Shown: positions 3,853 through 10,096 of the stretch, in pieces | Position numbering within the stretch: the first letter of the stretch is position 1 | Layout: the number at the start of each line of letters is the position of its first letter | Origin: Escherichia coli | GTDB lineage: Bacteria; Pseudomonadota; Gammaproteobacteria; Enterobacterales; Enterobacteriaceae | Assembly (NCBI RefSeq): GCF_003334765.1 | Contig: NZ_QOWT01000022.1 | Length of the DNA: 64,000 nt | Strand: one strand, 5' to 3' | The notes under the pieces: generated by a model | Database searches by the model: none | What the model was told of the DNA's origin: nothing | Seen by the model: only the letters and a program-made list of their open reading frames with translations | Made by a program: the position numbers and the translations under genes

Positions 3853-4659
3853 ATGAGTGTTATGAATCCAATAAGTTCTAATATATTTAATGCTGAATTT
3901 TTAAACACCCCGGCAGCGGCACTTGCCGCATGGATTTCCATTATTGGAGCTGTTATAACTTTGGTGACGATAGTTATAAGAGCACTATTCAAATATAGAA
4001 AATCTCATGATGTAATTTTGAAAAAATCAGGAATACCTGCGTTTATATTGAATTTTTTTCTTATACGAATATCATTAAAAAGGCTGCCTACTATCACATG
4101 GGCTGAAAAATCAATCACGGTTCTCTTTTCACTTCTTTTTTTGTGTGCAATTTATATTTTTGGTCCAGTTTTCATCCAAGCCATTAGAACCCCACCAAAT
4201 AGCACATTGCTTTATTGGATAAAATCCGGTGAATCATTTTATATGTCAAAAAAACTGGCGACTGCAGCTACAATATTAACCACTCCTGATTGGGAAATAT
4301 CAAAGGATGATTGCGAAGAGTCATCCTCTGCCAGTACAGAGAAGTACAAATCATTAACTATCGAACATAAAGAAATTCTTTGTAAACTACTAACCACTGA
4401 TGAAGGGAATGCTTACATTGATGAAGAAGTCAAGAATTTCGTTAAAGACAAATTCTTTATCTATTCCTTTGCCCCAACAACCATATTTATTCTATTATGG
4501 ATTTCTTTGGGTTTTATACTGACCATTCACTATTCTAAAAAAGTTAGGAAATATATTCTGACTGAACAAAAAAATGCAATTCATTGGGCATATGGTGAAT
4601 TCAAGACAGAAGGAATCTATTCAATATATCAAGAGTTAGAACGTAAGACTCACCATTAA
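3853..4659 (+). CDS. Hypothetical polytopic membrane protein (moron inserted between tail genes S and V)
   Basis: 268-aa ORF, strongly AT-rich unlike flanking tail genes; several hydrophobic segments (e.g. AALAAWISIIGAVITLVTIVI, ITVLFSLLFLCAIYIFGPVF, TTIFILLWISLGFILTI); no recognisable domain. Confidence 0.6.
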   Translation: MSVMNPISSNIFNAEFLNTPAAALAAWISIIGAVITLVTIVIRALFKYRKSHDVILKKSGIPAFILNFFLIRISLKRLPTITWAEKSITVLFSLLFLCAIYIFGPVFIQAIRTPPNSTLLYWIKSGESFYMSKKLATAATILTTPDWEISKDDCEESSSASTEKYKSLTIEHKEILCKLLTTDEGNAYIDEEVKNFVKDKFFIYSFAPTTIFILLWISLGFILTIHYSKKVRKYILTEQKNAIHWAYGEFKTEGIYSIYQELERKTHH

Positions 4660-5047: not shown

Positions 5048-5498
5048 GTTTCACCGTCCACATTTCTTCAGGTTCATCGGGTTCTGCTACCGCTTCAACG
5101 CTCGACACACTGCCGTCAGTGCTGACCAGCACACGTTCCGTCAGTTGCAGGTTAAGGCTGATATCACAGACATCGTTGCGCAGAATATCCACCTCAAAGG
5201 TAAATAGTTTTTCCCGTAACGCCGGGTTATTGATGGCATCGGGCTGGTTATCCCGCAGCCACAGCAAAACCGGGGCCATCAGCAGATTCTGGTCGCCGCT
5301 GAAATCCTCAATCACCACGTTCAGGGTGTAACCACGCAGCCCTACGAGTTCACTAAAGGCAGTATCTTTCACCTGATGGAGCCGGACCTGAACCAGGAAA
5401 TTTACGGCCTGCCGGAATATCTGTCCGCCATTCCGTCCGCCTTGCTGAACGAGTCCGCTACGCTGTTCCGGCGTAAATACTACATCAATGGCAGTCAT
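5040..5498 (-). CDS. Tail completion protein (P2 gpR-like); N-terminus possibly not native
   Basis: 152-aa ORF; C-terminal ~100 aa look gpR-like (YTLNVVIEDFSGD...LTERVLVS); N-terminal ~40 codons are antisense to the portal fragment. Confidence 0.65.
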   Translation of the reverse strand: MTAIDVVFTPEQRSGLVQQGGRNGGQIFRQAVNFLVQVRLHQVKDTAFSELVGLRGYTLNVVIEDFSGDQNLLMAPVLLWLRDNQPDAINNPALREKLFTFEVDILRNDVCDISLNLQLTERVLVSTDGSVSSVEAVAEPDEPEEMWTVKRG

Positions 5499-5906: not shown

Positions 5907-5907
5907 T

Positions 5908-5934
5908 AAAGTAGGGCAAATAATGCCCTACTTT
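5908..5934. terminator. Bidirectional stem-loop between convergent portal fragment and 285-aa cargo gene
   Basis: Perfect inverted repeat AAAGTAGGGC-(AAATAAT)-GCCCTACTTT flanked by A/T runs. Confidence 0.6.
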
Positions 5935-6785
5935 AACCAAATATTATAATCCAATCTTCCTACGTATCTTGAAAAAACAGCCAGAGCAATTGCTTGCCCT
6001 ACACTTGTTAATTCAATTCCTTGATAGTTGCTCTTTGAAAATTTTTCTAAAAATGCAGACACATGAGGGGCAACTAACTTAAGATTTGAAATATATGCAC
6101 TCTTATCTTTTATATCAGTCGGATATTTACTCATAAAATAGTCTTCAACATCCATCCCTAAAAAAGTATTCCATGAACAAGCCCCTGCATATTGAATGTG
6201 ATATATCTGGGCTTGAGACAAATTAAACCCATTAGTATACATTGATTCAAAGTTTCTAAAATTGTGCTCCAACAAATCCAATCGAACACCATTAACAGGG
6301 TCTTTGATCTCAACATTCTTGAGAAGAAAAACTATCGTTATAAGTGATATTTGTTGCTGTGTTAACTTGGGAACGACGGTAACTGCCTCCGTTAAAACTA
6401 TATCTCTAAAATCGTCATTGTTATTGGAGACTCGTTCAACTAACAACTGAGAAAGCACATCCATATTAGCTTTCTTTCCCTTCCTGGCTGATGACTTTAA
6501 TGCCTCAGTCAATGTAGCCTGAACGTCCGGATCGCAAAATTTATCAATAATCAATCTATCAACGTTTTTTGTTAAATCCGAAACGACACGCTCTTCAAAA
6601 TCTTTTGCATTCTCTTGAGCTGCAGCATAAGCAACATCTTTCAATTTTGGAAACTGATTTTCGAAGAGAATGTTGAATAGTTCTCTAACCTCGGAAAACG
6701 ACATCCCTGAAACATTTACATTATTTCCAGCTTGAATTGCATACGAATTATTACCTATTTGTTGCTTTTGCTTATCACTAAACAT
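5928..6785 (-). CDS. Hypothetical protein, 285 aa (AT-rich cargo, cos-proximal)
   Basis: Long ORF in AT-rich DNA; no domain recognised; N-terminal low-complexity motif IGNNSYAIQAGNNVNV. Confidence 0.65.
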   Translation of the reverse strand: MFSDKQKQQIGNNSYAIQAGNNVNVSGMSFSEVRELFNILFENQFPKLKDVAYAAAQENAKDFEERVVSDLTKNVDRLIIDKFCDPDVQATLTEALKSSARKGKKANMDVLSQLLVERVSNNNDDFRDIVLTEAVTVVPKLTQQQISLITIVFLLKNVEIKDPVNGVRLDLLEHNFRNFESMYTNGFNLSQAQIYHIQYAGACSWNTFLGMDVEDYFMSKYPTDIKDKSAYISNLKLVAPHVSAFLEKFSKSNYQGIELTSVGQAIALAVFSRYVGRLDYNIWLK

Positions 6786-6794
6786 ATATCCTCC

Positions 6795-7040
6795 TTATTT
6801 TTTATCACCTGTATTTATACAATCAATTTTAATATCACCTCTAGCCTGGACAGCAGTTGAATTATCACCAACTGATTGGCTCATAGAATTATATTTATTT
6901 TTTGTAGTGATAAGTAATCCAGCTAAAGCGCTAACTGCAGCCAAAAATGCAACAATAGAATCAAAACCAGGATCCATATAAAGCCATAATCCTGCAATCG
7001 ATGCCAGCATACATGTAATGACTATTGCAAAAATTTTCAT
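6795..7040 (-). CDS. Small membrane protein, 81 aa, two predicted TM helices; co-oriented 9 bp upstream of the 285-aa gene
   Basis: Hydrophobic segments IFAIVITCMLASIAGLWLY and IVAFLAAVSALAGLLIT; C-terminal tail VGDNSTAVQARGDIKI resembles the N-terminus of the downstream protein. Confidence 0.55.
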   Translation of the reverse strand: MKIFAIVITCMLASIAGLWLYMDPGFDSIVAFLAAVSALAGLLITTKNKYNSMSQSVGDNSTAVQARGDIKIDCINTGDKK

Positions 7041-7108
7041 AAATTCTCCTTCTAATGGAAGTGGTTATACCGAAAACAATTTCCTTTTACAACCACGCAC
7101 AGCGCGCG

Positions 7109-7345: not shown

Positions 7346-8347
7346 ATGGGTGGAGAGACTTCGGCTATACAACGAGTCGCGGGTAAGATTTCTGATGATA
7401 TTTTCTCAGTGTTCAAATGGGATCGTGCCGCTAGAGCGGACATGAATTGGGATTGTTGCCAAGAGGCTCATTCCAAGAAAACACATCCAAGCGATGTTGT
7501 ATTTTTCTACATAGATCCATATGAGGAGGAAATGGTCTATCTCAACACAGACCTCAAAAGCTATGCAGAAGGTACTATTGGGAAAAAAATAGTCGAGGGA
7601 GCTTTAACATCGCTTGCTTTAGCTACCGAGTGTGCAAATGTCAGTGAAGAATGGCGATTGAAATATGTTCATGATGATTCTTTAGGTTATAACGTAAGAG
7701 GGTTATTATTCTTATATAACCATGATAATTTATATGATAAAGACTTCTATGAGAATATTACAAAAAAATTAGATCACTCATCTATAAATTGCCCTCCAAA
7801 CATCAAACTACATTTGCTTGACCCTTATAAAATATCAGATTTGATAAACATATCTTCTGACATAACTAAGTTAATTGGTTCAGGCAAACTTCCTCAACCT
7901 GATAAGTTCACATATTATTATCCAGATCTTTCCCTAACAAGAATAAAGCACCCTATTAATCAGACAACACCTGCAACAATTGAATTATTAACATCACCAT
8001 ACATTATAATAAAGCATGAGGCTTTCAGTTGGCTCAGGGATAAAAACCCTGAGGGATATGTTGTTTATTACAATCAACCGGGGGATTCAGTAGACGAATT
8101 CGTTTACTTCTTTGATATGTTATCAACTTATCAGATATTAACCGAAGGTAAACCAATCGTATTACGCCATTGTCACATTCACCCAAATGAAAATGCCATT
8201 CATCATTTTGAAAGAGCGAAAAAGAAATACAGCACAGACTGGCTCTTAGGCGAGGATGAAAGACTTTTTCTTAAAATTGACTTCGACAAGACAGACAAAA
8301 TTGTTGTTGAATATAATCTTGAACAAATCGGCATGGAGCAACGATAA
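7346..8347 (+). CDS. Hypothetical protein A, 333 aa (first gene of three-gene cargo operon)
   Basis: ORF with AGGAG-like RBS ~10 nt upstream; AT-rich; stop overlaps next start (TAATG); no Walker A, RT or TIR motif seen. Confidence 0.7.
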   Translation: MGGETSAIQRVAGKISDDIFSVFKWDRAARADMNWDCCQEAHSKKTHPSDVVFFYIDPYEEEMVYLNTDLKSYAEGTIGKKIVEGALTSLALATECANVSEEWRLKYVHDDSLGYNVRGLLFLYNHDNLYDKDFYENITKKLDHSSINCPPNIKLHLLDPYKISDLINISSDITKLIGSGKLPQPDKFTYYYPDLSLTRIKHPINQTTPATIELLTSPYIIIKHEAFSWLRDKNPEGYVVYYNQPGDSVDEFVYFFDMLSTYQILTEGKPIVLRHCHIHPNENAIHHFERAKKKYSTDWLLGEDERLFLKIDFDKTDKIVVEYNLEQIGMEQR

Positions 8348-9426
8348 TGGCTAAAAAACTATATTTCGCAACTGATAAAAATATTTATGATGCATTACAT
8401 CATAAAAGGATAACCGCTGCAAAGTTGCATGAATTATTGTTGAATCGAGGTGTGTTTTTATCACCAGAACTCGACAAGGAAATACTAATCGAGGAAATAT
8501 CCAAACTTCCTCACGGATTTAATGAATTAGAACACATAAAAAAACTGGTCAAAACATATGACCCAAGGGAAAGCACTACTAGTGTGAGCTTCCAAACCTC
8601 AACAAATCAGGCCGAATTAAAAAGTGCTGCTGAAGCACTAAAAAAAACATGCTCCCCTAGTAAAGGTCAAAGCCTGAATATTGTAGCTAAAAAAGATGGC
8701 TCGCTTACAGTAGAATACAAATATGAAGAAATAGACCTGTCTAAAACTGCATTACGTCAGATCGACAAGCGGAATGTTATAATAGAACTTCGCCCTGGAG
8801 CTGACAAAGTTGAAGTACGTATGCCTCAAAACCCCGAGGCAAAAAAAGTTATTGAGAGCTTGCAAAACGAGCTATCTAAAATCAAGTCCGAACCTATCGA
8901 GCGCTTCGAAATATCATTACTAGCAATAACTGATCCTACATTGCGAAGTCAGTTTTTTCAGGAATTAATGAATGGTCTACGCGGTTATGAGACTGATGAC
9001 GTAACAAAAGTCGAATTAAATCGCAGTACTGATGCTAGTGAGGATGAAGACAAGGAAGAAACTATTGATACCGGATTTGTTAAGAAAGCCGTCCTTAATG
9101 GTGAAGGGGTAAATAGTTCAGCTATATTTTCTCAACTACATGAGAAAGGTTATTATATCGGGCGTATTGCATGGTCTTCAAAGCCGACAAGTGGAATTGG
9201 AGACAGAATCAACGTCGAAGCATTTTTCAAAGACTCAGAAAAATGCTGTGACTTTGCCTATCAAATTAAAGGTATAAACAATCAAAAAGAAGACGGTTTC
9301 AATGTAACCATTCGCGCGGCAACGGCACAAGAGAAAAAACATATTAGTGAATTAATTGAGTCCGCCGCTGAAAATGCCTATAATATAATAATAGGATCAG
9401 AGGTGAACGAAGATGAAAAAGGTTAA
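8347..9426 (+). CDS. Hypothetical protein B, 359 aa (second gene of three-gene cargo operon)
   Basis: ORF coupled to gene A by a 1-nt overlap and to gene C by a 14-nt overlap; acidic stretch DASEDEDKEE; no recognisable domain. Confidence 0.7.
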   Translation: MAKKLYFATDKNIYDALHHKRITAAKLHELLLNRGVFLSPELDKEILIEEISKLPHGFNELEHIKKLVKTYDPRESTTSVSFQTSTNQAELKSAAEALKKTCSPSKGQSLNIVAKKDGSLTVEYKYEEIDLSKTALRQIDKRNVIIELRPGADKVEVRMPQNPEAKKVIESLQNELSKIKSEPIERFEISLLAITDPTLRSQFFQELMNGLRGYETDDVTKVELNRSTDASEDEDKEETIDTGFVKKAVLNGEGVNSSAIFSQLHEKGYYIGRIAWSSKPTSGIGDRINVEAFFKDSEKCCDFAYQIKGINNQKEDGFNVTIRAATAQEKKHISELIESAAENAYNIIIGSEVNEDEKG

Positions 9427-10096
9427 ATGGCTTAAGTTAAACATACGGCTTGAGTTTGAAACAGCCGTTAGACGTCTTTCTCTTGATTCTTTTACAGAGG
9501 ATAAAGGGAAAGGGTTCATTTTTGATAAAATACGCCATGATTTTGCAAATGGTCGCTTTGTCGAGCGTATTGTTTATCATGATAAAATATTAAGCTTTGA
9601 CGGAAGCGAAACTACCGTTGAAAGAATCGAATATCGCACCACAAATTTTAGCGTGGCTTTAGACTCTCTTCCTGTAATGCAGATTACTAACCCACCCAGA
9701 ACTTTAAAGCCTTTTTCGCAGGCTTTGGTAAAAAATCTTGGCTTAGGTGTTAGTTTGGAAGAAATTGACATAAACCCTATAGACTGGCTTAATGAAATAT
9801 CTTCAAGTGTAAATATCAATTTAACACAACTTGATATTTCAAGGGTTAGAGTTTCTGATTACGCCACAGCTAAAATGCAAATAATTGGCAGCAATGATCT
9901 TAGGAAGTATTATAAAGAAGAATTAGAGGGTAAAAAAATAAGAATTGACAGGCTTGTTTGCTCTGTTAATTCATTAGAATATTCCGGTAAGCTCAAGATC
10001 ACCAATAGCGGCCTTGCTTATATTGATGTTAGAAATGAGAATGAGTTTACGAAAATCGTTTTTGATACGTTAAAAAAAGTCACCCTTCAATCATAG
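9413..10096 (+). CDS. Hypothetical protein C, 227 aa (third gene of three-gene cargo operon)
   Basis: ORF starting inside the end of gene B; followed by a strong hairpin; no recognisable domain. Confidence 0.65.
   Translation: MKKVKWLKLNIRLEFETAVRRLSLDSFTEDKGKGFIFDKIRHDFANGRFVERIVYHDKILSFDGSETTVERIEYRTTNFSVALDSLPVMQITNPPRTLKPFSQALVKNLGLGVSLEEIDINPIDWLNEISSSVNINLTQLDISRVRVSDYATAKMQIIGSNDLRKYYKEELEGKKIRIDRLVCSVNSLEYSGKLKITNSGLAYIDVRNENEFTKIVFDTLKKVTLQS

Follow-up and report, generated by a model that had tools for sequence, protein, structure and literature searches.

Fungi and one Escherichia coli system, Bab/Agp, offer established cases of shared-motif (amyloid) signalling from a sensor to a cell-death effector, whereas bacterial amyloid signalling had earlier been viewed as mostly confined to the NLR proteins of multicellular bacteria. 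In Bab/Agp (E. coli ECOR25, BASS11; Ibarlosa et al., bioRxiv 10.1101/2024.11.07.622273), two neighbouring genes of a defence hotspot in an E. coli prophage encode a small membrane-targeting protein with a C-terminal motif and a larger, non-NLR cytoplasmic protein with an N-terminal motif. The NLR-associated pairs (BASS1-10 Bell/NLR, HET-S/NWD2, PP and the RHIM-related BASS3; Dyrka et al., bioRxiv 10.1101/2020.01.06.895854) likewise place the motif at the effector C-terminus and the receptor N-terminus of adjacent genes. A third point of comparison is Abi-alpha (EF2833, DUF4393/PF14337) of Enterococcus faecalis prophage 6, an all-alpha protein whose phenotype is premature lysis (PMC6356687).

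The locus described here lies in a window of 64,000 nucleotides of E. coli DNA (NCBI RefSeq assembly GCF_003334765.1, contig NZ_QOWT01000022.1). It consists of a gene for a small membrane protein followed by a gene of the LPO_1073/Vpar_1526 family, and it belongs to the cos-proximal defence hotspot of P2, where it is flanked by the portal gene and gpA and adjoins the Rst_3HP system (PMC9122126). The pair resembles Bab/Agp in its adjacent genes, its prophage setting and the distribution of the motif between a small membrane protein and a larger non-NLR cytoplasmic one. In both systems the motif spans about 22-25 residues with glycine breaks, a likeness drawn by description. The effectors differ, being an integral membrane protein of one or two helices here and a Bell-type helical domain in Bab/Agp, and so do the sensors (LPO_1073/Vpar_1526 versus TPR-GreA/B-C-PIN). 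Moreover, defence and fibril formation have been shown experimentally for Bab/Agp, whereas for the window pair they would be predictions.

With the NLR-associated pairs, the locus shares a motif of about 25 residues enriched in G, N, Q, V and I and depleted in P and L, as well as the alternation of an N-terminal effector domain with the short motif, which is found among LPO relatives too. The G-phi-Q-phi-G signature of those pairs is matched by GIQAG of the small protein if alanine is taken as the second phi; in that signature G precedes phi-Q, whereas the receptor side here usually has A. The NB-ARC/NACHT NTPase and the repeats of the NLR-associated pairs are absent from the LPO pair, which is encoded mostly by unicellular Proteobacteria, Bacteroidota and prophages rather than by multicellular Actinobacteria and Cyanobacteria. 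Unlike in the NLR-associated pairs, single-chain forms in the LPO family retain the motif. Given the precedent of Bab/Agp with its non-NLR sensor, an NLR/STAND receptor is not obligatory. No published description of an LPO_1073/Vpar_1526 protein paired with a small membrane protein was found in the literature, and an amyloid-signalling-type layout appears to be previously undescribed for this family.

The gene pair and its two protein families

The coordinates of the locus are collected in Table 1. The junction has a layout typical of translational coupling, and in the distant relatives sampled the two ORFs overlap by 4-35 nt. Strong Shine-Dalgarno sites precede both minus-strand ORFs, and the terminator-like hairpin is common to the end of the operon and the convergent portal gene remnant.

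Table 1. Features of the two-gene locus in the window (positions counted from the first nucleotide).
Feature	Position	Strand	Basis or remark
Terminator-like hairpin, end of two-gene operon	5907..5935	minus	Consensus scan only
LPO_1073/Vpar_1526 family gene, 285 aa	5928..6785	minus	NF045477, PF28206, phrog_19542; all-alpha domain from aa 30
N-terminal motif copy, aa 5-26, KQKQQIGNNSYAIQAGNNVNVS	6708..6773	minus	Outside NCBIfam domain model (starts aa 27)
Gene junction	6786..6797	minus	Small-gene stop (6795-6797), GGAGG (6790-6794), 4 nt, large-gene ATG (6783-6785)
Small membrane protein gene, 81 aa	6795..7040	minus	ORF and AAGGAG Shine-Dalgarno; phrog_27656, no named family
C-terminal motif copy, aa 52-73, SMSQSVGDNSTAVQARGDIKID	6822..6887	minus	Conserved in all small-protein homologues examined
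Two hydrophobic helices, aa 2-22 and 26-44	6909..7037	minus	AF2 secondary structure and homologue alignment
AAGGAG Shine-Dalgarno of small gene	7046-7051	minus	Read from sequence

The large protein matches the NF045477 HMM with 243.4 bits against a curated cut-off of 45, its residues 27-284 covering model positions 1-257. The PF28206 assignment is precomputed for all homologues, and the RefSeq annotation of the window gene agrees with the family. This family is large: clustered at 50% identity it yields more than 2000 groups, from many phyla and from prophages, and its members occur in P2-like prophages and other mobile-element contexts of at least a dozen bacterial lineages; one locus adjoins a phage integrase. 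Scans with a Pfam set that does not include PF28206 returned nothing useful for the window proteins, one HNH-fused and one 350-aa relative or 25 distant members. The PADLOC-DB 2.0 HMMs gave no match to the 285-aa protein, and two distant members weakly matched the candidate PDC-S47 (E 5e-6 and 3e-3). Family scans, the AF2 model and structure comparison revealed no NTPase domain in this all-alpha protein, and it is neither an NLR/STAND protein nor equipped with a known oligomerisation domain.

Among its structural relatives found by Foldseek are DUF4393-annotated entries (E about 1e-14, 27% identity). These matches, the one basis of the link, suggest that the protein may be distantly similar in fold to Abi-alpha, which is likewise prophage-encoded, all-alpha and about 270-285 aa long; PF14337 itself matched neither the window protein, even at E <= 10, nor any of the 25 distant members. 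The premature lysis caused by Abi-alpha would be compatible with a membrane effector. Abi-alpha has been described as a single-gene system with no reported motif-bearing membrane partner, whereas the LPO pair has one.

Other architectures occur within the family. Four relatives (P0301, P0339, P0351 and P0381) are single chains with a membrane helix, one motif and the LPO domain, and in one single-chain relative the sequence IQIGGD is present; P0366 combines a membrane helix and the LPO domain with a weak motif-like stretch. In further relatives, an HNH-like nuclease domain stands in place of the N-terminal motif.

The small protein has 127 homologues of about 77-90 aa in a profile search. Neither Pfam nor NCBIfam holds a family matching it, and in PADLOC-DB 2.0 it weakly matches the 2TM effector model PDLC00710 (E 0.017). 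In the homologue alignment its two helices are joined by a conserved W..KPGFDS turn, in which W19 is invariant and P24 nearly so. A helical hairpin whose two ends lie in the cytoplasm is predicted; this topology follows from the positive-inside rule, as K2 and K47/K49 flank the helices and D23/D27 lie in the loop. The window's allele reads AVQAR where near-identical Salmonella-type alleles read GVQAG, so that its motif copy could be weakened or re-tuned.

A motif common to both proteins

The two proteins share a G/Q/S/N-rich motif of ~22 residues, Q-x-Q-x-V-x-G-G-S-x-(G/A)-I-Q-A-G-(R/G)-D-V-N-V. A reading made from the DNA sequence alone (hereafter the sequence-only reading) had pointed to a likeness between the facing ends of the two proteins at about 9 of 16 positions; in fact VGDNSTAVQARGDIKI and IGNNSYAIQAGNNVNV agree at 12 of 16 (6 identities and 6 BLOSUM62-positive pairs), and the match continues upstream with SQ against KQ. 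The local BLOSUM62 score of 45 was equalled in 6-11 of 2000 whole-protein shuffles and in none of 5000 tail-only shuffles. At the DNA level the signal is weak, since the best local alignment score of 14 was equalled in 24 of 2000 shuffles and the ungapped nucleotide identity of the motif-coding segments is 53%.

We regard as decisive for a shared motif the comparative evidence, namely its conservation in both protein families across phyla. The motif is present at the N-terminus of 120/120 closest homologues of the large protein, and a sample of 147 distant representatives, taken from 2363 clusters, has it in most members. It is thus a conserved N-terminal signature of that family, as the sequence-only reading had thought worth checking, and a C-terminal signature of the small-protein family as well. 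In every locus examined with a motif-bearing LPO gene and obtainable upstream DNA, a small membrane ORF of one or two helices that ends in the motif lies directly upstream on the same strand (13/13 genome loci, 11/11 viral loci and 6/6 individually sampled distant members, one of whose upstream ORFs was unannotated). Across 47 pairs, the motif lies mostly 9-16 aa from the small-protein C-terminus (up to 23 in L036/L037) and 9-20 aa from the start of the large protein. As an independent cross-match, the N-terminus of P0345 aligns with positions 51-73 of the small protein's PHROG. No third conserved gene accompanies the pair in the neighbourhoods of the genome loci and the sampled distant members.

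Around an invariant Q-A-G core, conservation is strong in both copies. The G-phi-Q-phi-G signature takes the form G-I/V-Q-A-G on the small side in 39/41 pairs and A-I/L-Q-A-G on the large side. The copies within a locus resemble each other more than copies from different loci: of the 22 positions, 10.5 are identical between cognate motifs and 8.96 between non-cognate ones (24 non-redundant pairs), and the BLOSUM scores are 52.3 and 41.4 (p < 2e-5 in permutation tests that treat the phylogenetically related pairs as independent). Position +3 is R/R in 10 pairs, G/G in 9 and mismatched in 5, and at position -2 the distant clades have N/N or G/G. These comparisons of sequences show that the two copies co-vary within loci. 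The nucleotide identity between the copies is 0.45-0.65 in 24 loci, and at 245 positions with identical residues the codons coincide 96 times, the expected number being 96.1; codon choice being random there, selection acts on the peptide and not on the DNA.

The composition over the 22 columns (G 12-16%, Q 14-16%, P 0%, L 0.3-2%) favours G, Q, S, V, A, I and N, a bias also reported in bacterial amyloid signalling motifs (bioRxiv 10.1101/2020.01.06.895854). In addition, the motif core NSTGIQxG / S-x-G/A-I-Q-A-G resembles the mammalian RHIM of RIPK1, whose N-S-T-G-I-Q-x-G core matches the motif consensus. The RHIM sequences of RIPK1 and RIPK3 were confirmed in the PDB (9hr6, 8z93, 7dac) and then scored on the position matrix of the motif: RIPK1 reached 10.4 bits, a value attained by 6 of 11,455 background windows (about 5e-4), and RIPK3 5.7 bits, attained by 40 of 11,455. 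A search of PDB sequences with the motif profile (hmmsearch) gave no match. The flanks are unlike, and at position +1 the motif has A where RHIM has I or V; the resemblance, extending over about 8 residues, is too short for establishing homology.

In the AF2 monomer model of the large protein, the motif is coil with a pLDDT of 63-74. In an AF2 model of the two proteins as a fusion, built on a paired alignment, both copies become three matching short strands, those of the small protein at aa 54-57, 62-66 and 70-72 with low confidence. The strands, predicted only in the paired model and with a pLDDT of only about 48-59, may pair across the two motif copies. Solved RIPK3 fibrils have a serpentine fold with a strand number comparable to these three.

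A putative sensor and membrane effector: proposed coupling and rival readings

On balance, we consider it probable, by a modest measure, that the locus encodes an abortive-infection module in which a sensor and a membrane effector are coupled by homotypic beta association of the shared motif. The cytoplasmic all-alpha LPO_1073/Vpar_1526 protein would be the sensor or regulator, with its motif in a disordered N-terminal tail, and the minimal membrane protein would be the effector, with its motif in a cytoplasmic C-terminal tail. We infer that the copies bind each other through in-register beta-sheet stacking. Phage infection would trigger the sensor, whose N-terminal motifs would cluster and draw in, or template, the membrane protein's tails; clustering of the helical hairpins would follow and the inner membrane would be permeabilised, leading to abortive infection. 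The association may be a self-propagating amyloid, as in HET-S/NWD2 and Bab/Agp, or an ordinary finite beta-zipper. By analogy with the E. coli system, it is possibly amyloid-like.

The sequence-only reading had offered three explanations of the similarity, a local duplication, a frameshifted or split ancestral gene, and a shared interaction or targeting peptide, and these fared differently. The interaction peptide is supported by the signature found in both families and by the co-variation within loci. A duplication as a recent DNA event is contradicted by the low nucleotide identity in the 24 loci and by the codon counts, which likewise speak against gene conversion; an ancient duplication is a possible origin of the two copies. 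A split or frameshifted gene, or a pseudogene, is at odds, for this locus, with a two-gene layout that carries one motif copy per gene in more than 40 diverse loci and with the good ribosome-binding sites on both ORFs. The single fused ORF that this idea called for does exist among relatives, in the single chains described above; as these join the membrane helix, the motif and the LPO domain, the two genes would functionally form one unit. That the similarity is a functionless leftover of such events, or low complexity arising by chance, is highly improbable. The nucleotide alignment in the window is indeed marginally above shuffled sequence, and the N-terminus of P0298 (MSQKVGDNSTAVQAARDVNI), identical to the window's small-protein tail at 15 of 20 positions, hints at a past exchange of motif segments. 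Shared codons are not in excess, however, and across phyla both families keep the motif, always at a fixed distance from the terminus; the protein shuffles, together with this conservation, argue against chance as well.

A more serious rival, though one that we hold to be rather doubtful, is constitutive anchoring: a finite beta-zipper would permanently tether the LPO_1073 protein to its membrane partner without templating, regulation would lie elsewhere, and the two chains would reconstitute what relatives build as one. The single chains that keep the motif, the fusion model with no more than a small sheet and the lack of an evident oligomerisation domain in the sensor are all consistent with it, and a single motif in a single chain would suit a structural or oligomerisation role no less well than that of a templating switch. 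However, the monomer model leaves the motif disordered, and in composition and RHIM-like core it is of the amyloid signalling type; moreover, it was the alternation of an N-terminal effector domain with a short motif common to a neighbouring effector gene that first revealed amyloid signalling pairs (bioRxiv 10.1101/2020.01.06.895854). It is unlikely that the pair is instead a toxin-antitoxin system, in which the tail of a holin-like small toxin would be sequestered by the LPO_1073 motif and freed upon phage infection. The gene order and tight coupling do resemble two-gene toxin-antitoxin or Abi modules, and the weak likeness to the 2TM effector model and the premature lysis caused by Abi-alpha (PMC6356687) point the same way; activation and inhibition are indistinguishable on present evidence, but the HNH-LPO and membrane-helix-motif-LPO chains better fit an effector plus a sensor in cis. 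Binding of both copies to a common third party, such as a protein of host or phage, a protease, or some part of the membrane or cell wall, might account for their strong conservation around the Q-A-G core. Yet co-variation that preserves identity (R/R versus G/G, N/N, G/G) is unexpected for a fixed external ligand, and the pair has no third conserved gene, which makes this reading very improbable.

Extending the proposed coupling to the whole family is more tentative. It is conceivable, though we would not expect it, that the LPO_1073/Vpar_1526 family and its partners form a large unrecognised class of RHIM-like amyloid-signalling death switches in unicellular bacteria; the sensors, Abi-alpha-like and not of the NLR type, would then template the tails of minimal pore-formers with one or two helices.

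Possible meaning for antiphage defence

The window locus suggests that the wiring known from fungi and Bab/Agp is also used by a different family of far greater size, whose sensor would be of a new kind and whose effectors would be as small as can be conceived. It offers a function-level hypothesis for two families that have so far been annotated only as hypothetical or by locus tags, and it suggests a mechanism for Abi-alpha relatives. At about 1.1 kb, with two genes and a 22-residue motif, the system is compact enough for the hypothesis to be easily tested by mutagenesis and peptide biophysics. If the family as a whole did form such a class of switches, prion-like signalling would be common rather than exotic in antiphage defence, and the RHIM-type core would date back to conflicts between phages and bacteria.

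A shared motif at the facing termini of two genes

In the window, residues 52–73 of a small two-helix membrane protein (SMSQSVGDNSTAVQARGDIKID) align with residues 5–26 of the large LPO_1073/Vpar_1526 protein encoded directly downstream (KQKQQIGNNSYAIQAGNNVNVS). The sequence-only reading had pointed to this likeness over 16 positions, and rightly so: 6 are identical and 6 more are conservative substitutions. In local alignment the proteins score 45 (BLOSUM62), a value reached in none of 5000 shuffles restricted to the tails and in 6–11 of 2000 whole-protein shuffles, and the DNA-level similarity of the tails is marginal (equalled in 24 of 2000 shuffles). Taken by itself, before the comparative evidence, the similarity in the window is only suggestive.

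The GGAGG right behind the stop codon of the small gene is an arrangement typical of translational coupling. On the NCBIfam NF045477 model the large protein scores 243 bits (cut-off 45), which places it in the LPO_1073/Vpar_1526 family; the model starts only at residue 27, so the motif region lies outside it. Family model scans left the small protein without a match in Pfam or NCBIfam and without a convincing one in PADLOC; both proteins match PHROG families of unknown function.

Features of the gene pair and its surroundings
Feature	Position	Strand	Remarks
Small-protein ORF, 81 aa	7040..6795	minus	Strong Shine-Dalgarno sequence
Large-protein ORF, 285 aa	6785..5928	minus	Strong Shine-Dalgarno sequence; 9 nt after small ORF
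GGAGG Shine-Dalgarno of large gene	6790-6794		Directly after stop codon of small gene
Terminator-like hairpin	5907-5935		End of two-gene unit
Three-gene system (PADLOC Hp1, Hp2, Hp3)	7346-10096	plus	Full-length matches, E 1e-240, 3e-248, 2e-157
DUF6216 family protein, 268 aa, hydrophobic segments	3853-4659	plus	Opposite orientation, between baseplate gene V and virion-morphogenesis gene

The sequence-only reading asked whether the motif is a conserved N-terminal signature in homologues of the 285-aa protein, and it is: all 120 closest homologues start with xGDKQxQxxxxGSTAIQAG(R/G)D(V/I)xxxG. An exhaustive profile search for the large protein returned 2363 representative clusters; of the 147 listed, the majority retain the signature. 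A same-strand ORF of about 80 aa directly adjoins the large gene upstream in 13 of 13 full-length reference-genome loci and in all 11 viral-contig loci with upstream sequence; these ORFs encode two hydrophobic helices, a W..KPGFDS turn between them and a tail ...QSQxVSxxSxGIQAG(R/G)DxN(V/I). The small-protein profile finds 127 proteins, nearly all of 77–90 aa and a few of up to 110. Six distant members with differing N-terminal variants were sampled (P0298, P0345, P0270, P0333, P0306 and P0368), and each has a small ORF upstream, usually overlapping and in one locus unannotated. These ORFs are of another, single-helix type (NKEWxFSGIG...) and end in their own partner's motif variant. When all retrieved loci were scanned in six frames, the clear motif lay at just these two sites per locus, two Burkholderiaceae loci excepted; the remaining few regex matches are unlike it. 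In the Burkholderiaceae loci L011 (4949–5893) and L026, the first LPO_1073 gene is followed by a paralogue with its own N-terminal motif (GEGAVALQAGGNIVIQ), so one small membrane protein may serve two sensors there.

Co-variation of the two copies and modular relatives

Aligned on the invariant Q, 47 motif pairs were compared: 17 from the first set of loci, 6 from the sampled distant loci and 24 assigned by a heuristic, namely equal size of the contigs bearing the large and small homologues. Over 24 non-redundant pairs, cognate motifs exceed non-cognate ones in identities (10.5 versus 8.96 of 22) and in BLOSUM score (52.3 versus 41.4; permutation p < 2e-5, treating phylogenetically related pairs as independent). 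Counted from the Q, 10 pairs have R/R at position +3, 9 have G/G and 5 are mismatched; position -5 is N/N or G/G between partners, and position -2 shows G/A within the main clade and N/N or G/G in distant clades. Such same-residue matching is seen again in separate clades. Of 245 identical-residue positions in 24 loci, 96 share their codon (96.1 expected), and the two motif-coding segments share a nucleotide identity of 0.45–0.65. With no excess of shared codons and such low identity, recent duplication or gene conversion is rejected, and the local duplication offered by the sequence-only reading falls as a recent event. The two copies thus appear to co-evolve, with selection acting on the peptides and not through DNA homogenisation.

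The N-terminus of the distant member P0298 (L028, 2501–3337; MSQKVGDNSTAVQAARDVNI) is identical at 15 of 20 positions to the small-protein tail of the window (MSQSVGDNSTAVQARGDIKI) and closer to it than is the window's own large protein, which hints that the two gene families have exchanged motif segments. Residues 4–26 of P0345 independently match the small protein's PHROG model at positions 51–73.

The fused ORF that a split ancestral gene would predict was found in part: single-chain relatives exist, and window-type loci keep two separate ORFs. P0301, P0339, P0351 (with IQIGGD) and P0381 combine a membrane helix, one motif and the LPO domain; P0366 has the helix and the domain, and its motif-like stretch is weak. 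The N-termini of these chains look like free small proteins. Six further relatives (P0337, P0363, P0370, P0371, P0379 and P0385, locus L032) carry an N-terminal HNH-like domain (CxxC...HIEA...N...), which matches the 'HNH endonuclease' 9om4_A of the PDB (E 0.0027), and have neither the motif nor a small upstream partner. Across these architectures the LPO domain is a constant C-terminal module, and what varies is the presumed N-terminal effector: either a nuclease or a membrane helix is present in cis, or a membrane protein would be recruited in trans via the shared motif. Fungal and bacterial amyloid signalling pairs were found through a like alternation of 'effector domain or short shared motif' (bioRxiv 10.1101/2020.01.06.895854).

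Against 98%-identical Salmonella-type alleles (viral contigs L018–L021), codons 62, 63 and 67 of the small gene (6840–6856) differ, with NSTAVQARGD in the window versus NSIGVQAGGD and hence a core AVQAR versus GVQAG. These are 3 of the 5 non-synonymous differences in that gene (2 are synonymous), whereas in the large gene 6 differences are non-synonymous and 13 synonymous, none of them in its motif; the window copy of the small-protein motif may therefore be re-tuned or weakened.

A defence hotspot in a P2-like prophage

In a P2-like prophage, the gene pair sits between gpQ, the portal gene, and gpA, a replication gene. The Hp1–Hp3 system, presumably the one named Rst_3HP, directly adjoins it and is divergently transcribed; its second protein is weakly like GapS4b (E 2e-5). 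This cos-proximal P2 hotspot, the old/tin site in P2, is a reservoir of anti-phage systems, among them 'three genes with no clear predicted domain' that guard against P1 (Rousset et al. 2022, PMC9122126), to which the Hp1–Hp3 genes appear to correspond. At 100% identity the window matches E. coli H3 and a small number of further genomes; among 5426 complete E. coli genomes, the whole pair is present in only 6.

At about 5325–5332, some 5.06 kb are missing relative to the otherwise about 99–100% identical H3 prophage (L001 3461–8525), comprising lysC and small-terminase remnants, capsid, scaffold, large terminase and the N-terminal half of the portal; the prophage is thus defective, with its defence hotspot retained. 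The DUF6216 gene looks like another moron or accessory gene. Elsewhere (L031 958–3974; L038 105–2550), a holin (Phage_holin_4_1)/amidase lysis cassette directly follows the small-ORF and LPO pair, or a phage integrase directly precedes it, so the module is carried by several kinds of mobile element.

From motif to a proposed mechanism

AlphaFold2 (113-sequence alignment) predicts an all-alpha domain from residue 30 of the large protein (mean pLDDT 93.6) and a coil for the motif (63–74). In a paired-alignment model of an artificial fusion that joins the small to the large protein by a 30-residue GS linker, membrane helices span small-protein residues 2–22 and 26–44, and each motif forms three short strands at equivalent positions (small 54–57, 62–66, 70–72; large 7–10, 15–19, 23–25), the strands being of low confidence (block mean pLDDT about 48–59). 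Pairing across the two motifs is the likeliest reading of these strands, because the monomer model forms none. Foldseek against AFDB50 retrieved for the large protein family members and several 'DUF4393 domain-containing' entries (E about 1e-14). DUF4393 is Abi-alpha, an abortive-infection protein of an E. faecalis prophage that causes premature lysis (PMC6356687); the likeness is at fold level only, since neither the window protein nor any of 25 distant members scanned matches Pfam PF14337.

Proline is absent from the motif and leucine almost so, while G, Q, S, V, A, I and N abound, a bias also described for bacterial amyloid signalling sequences. In 39 of 41 pairs the small-protein side reads G-I/V-Q-A-G, in agreement with the G-phi-Q-phi-G signature of RHIM, PP and BASS3 if alanine counts as the second phi. 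On the motif position matrix anchored at Q, the RHIM sequences of RIPK1 (TIYNSTGIQIGAYNYMEIGG) and RIPK3 (VNIYNCSGVQVGDNNYLTMQ), checked in the PDB, score 10.4 and 5.7 bits, equalled by 6 and 40 of 11,455 background windows (4e-4, random sequence, and 4e-3). The matching part is the core N-S-T-G-I-Q-x-G of RIPK1; the flanks are unlike, and the motif profile had no match among PDB sequences; we regard this as a resemblance, short of proving homology.

The peptide-level motif at the facing termini is conserved and co-varies, the relatives are modular and the pair lies in a hotspot. We propose that the two copies would associate directly through beta-sheet stacking, that the LPO domain would sense infection and cluster its N-terminal tails, and that these would recruit or template the cytoplasmic tails of the membrane protein, whose helical hairpins would then cluster and breach the inner membrane, leading to abortive infection. 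Among known systems the nearest is E. coli Bab/Agp (BASS11 motif), where each corresponding step has experimental support (bioRxiv 10.1101/2024.11.07.622273). Direct coupling of the two motifs is quite likely and a defence role is rather favoured; towards the composite mechanism we lean slightly, and true amyloid-like templating is doubtful. The chief rival reading, a constitutive beta-zipper of finite size, is favoured by the retention of the motif in single-chain forms. Less probably, the polarity would be that of a toxin–antitoxin pair, one protein inhibiting rather than activating the other.

We found no paper on the LPO_1073/Vpar_1526 family, its accessions or the pairing, and HMM scans showed the family to be absent among PADLOC systems. 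While signalling through a shared motif is already known as a principle, what is new here is the putative sensor family, its minimal putative membrane effectors and their wide spread in unicellular bacteria and prophages.
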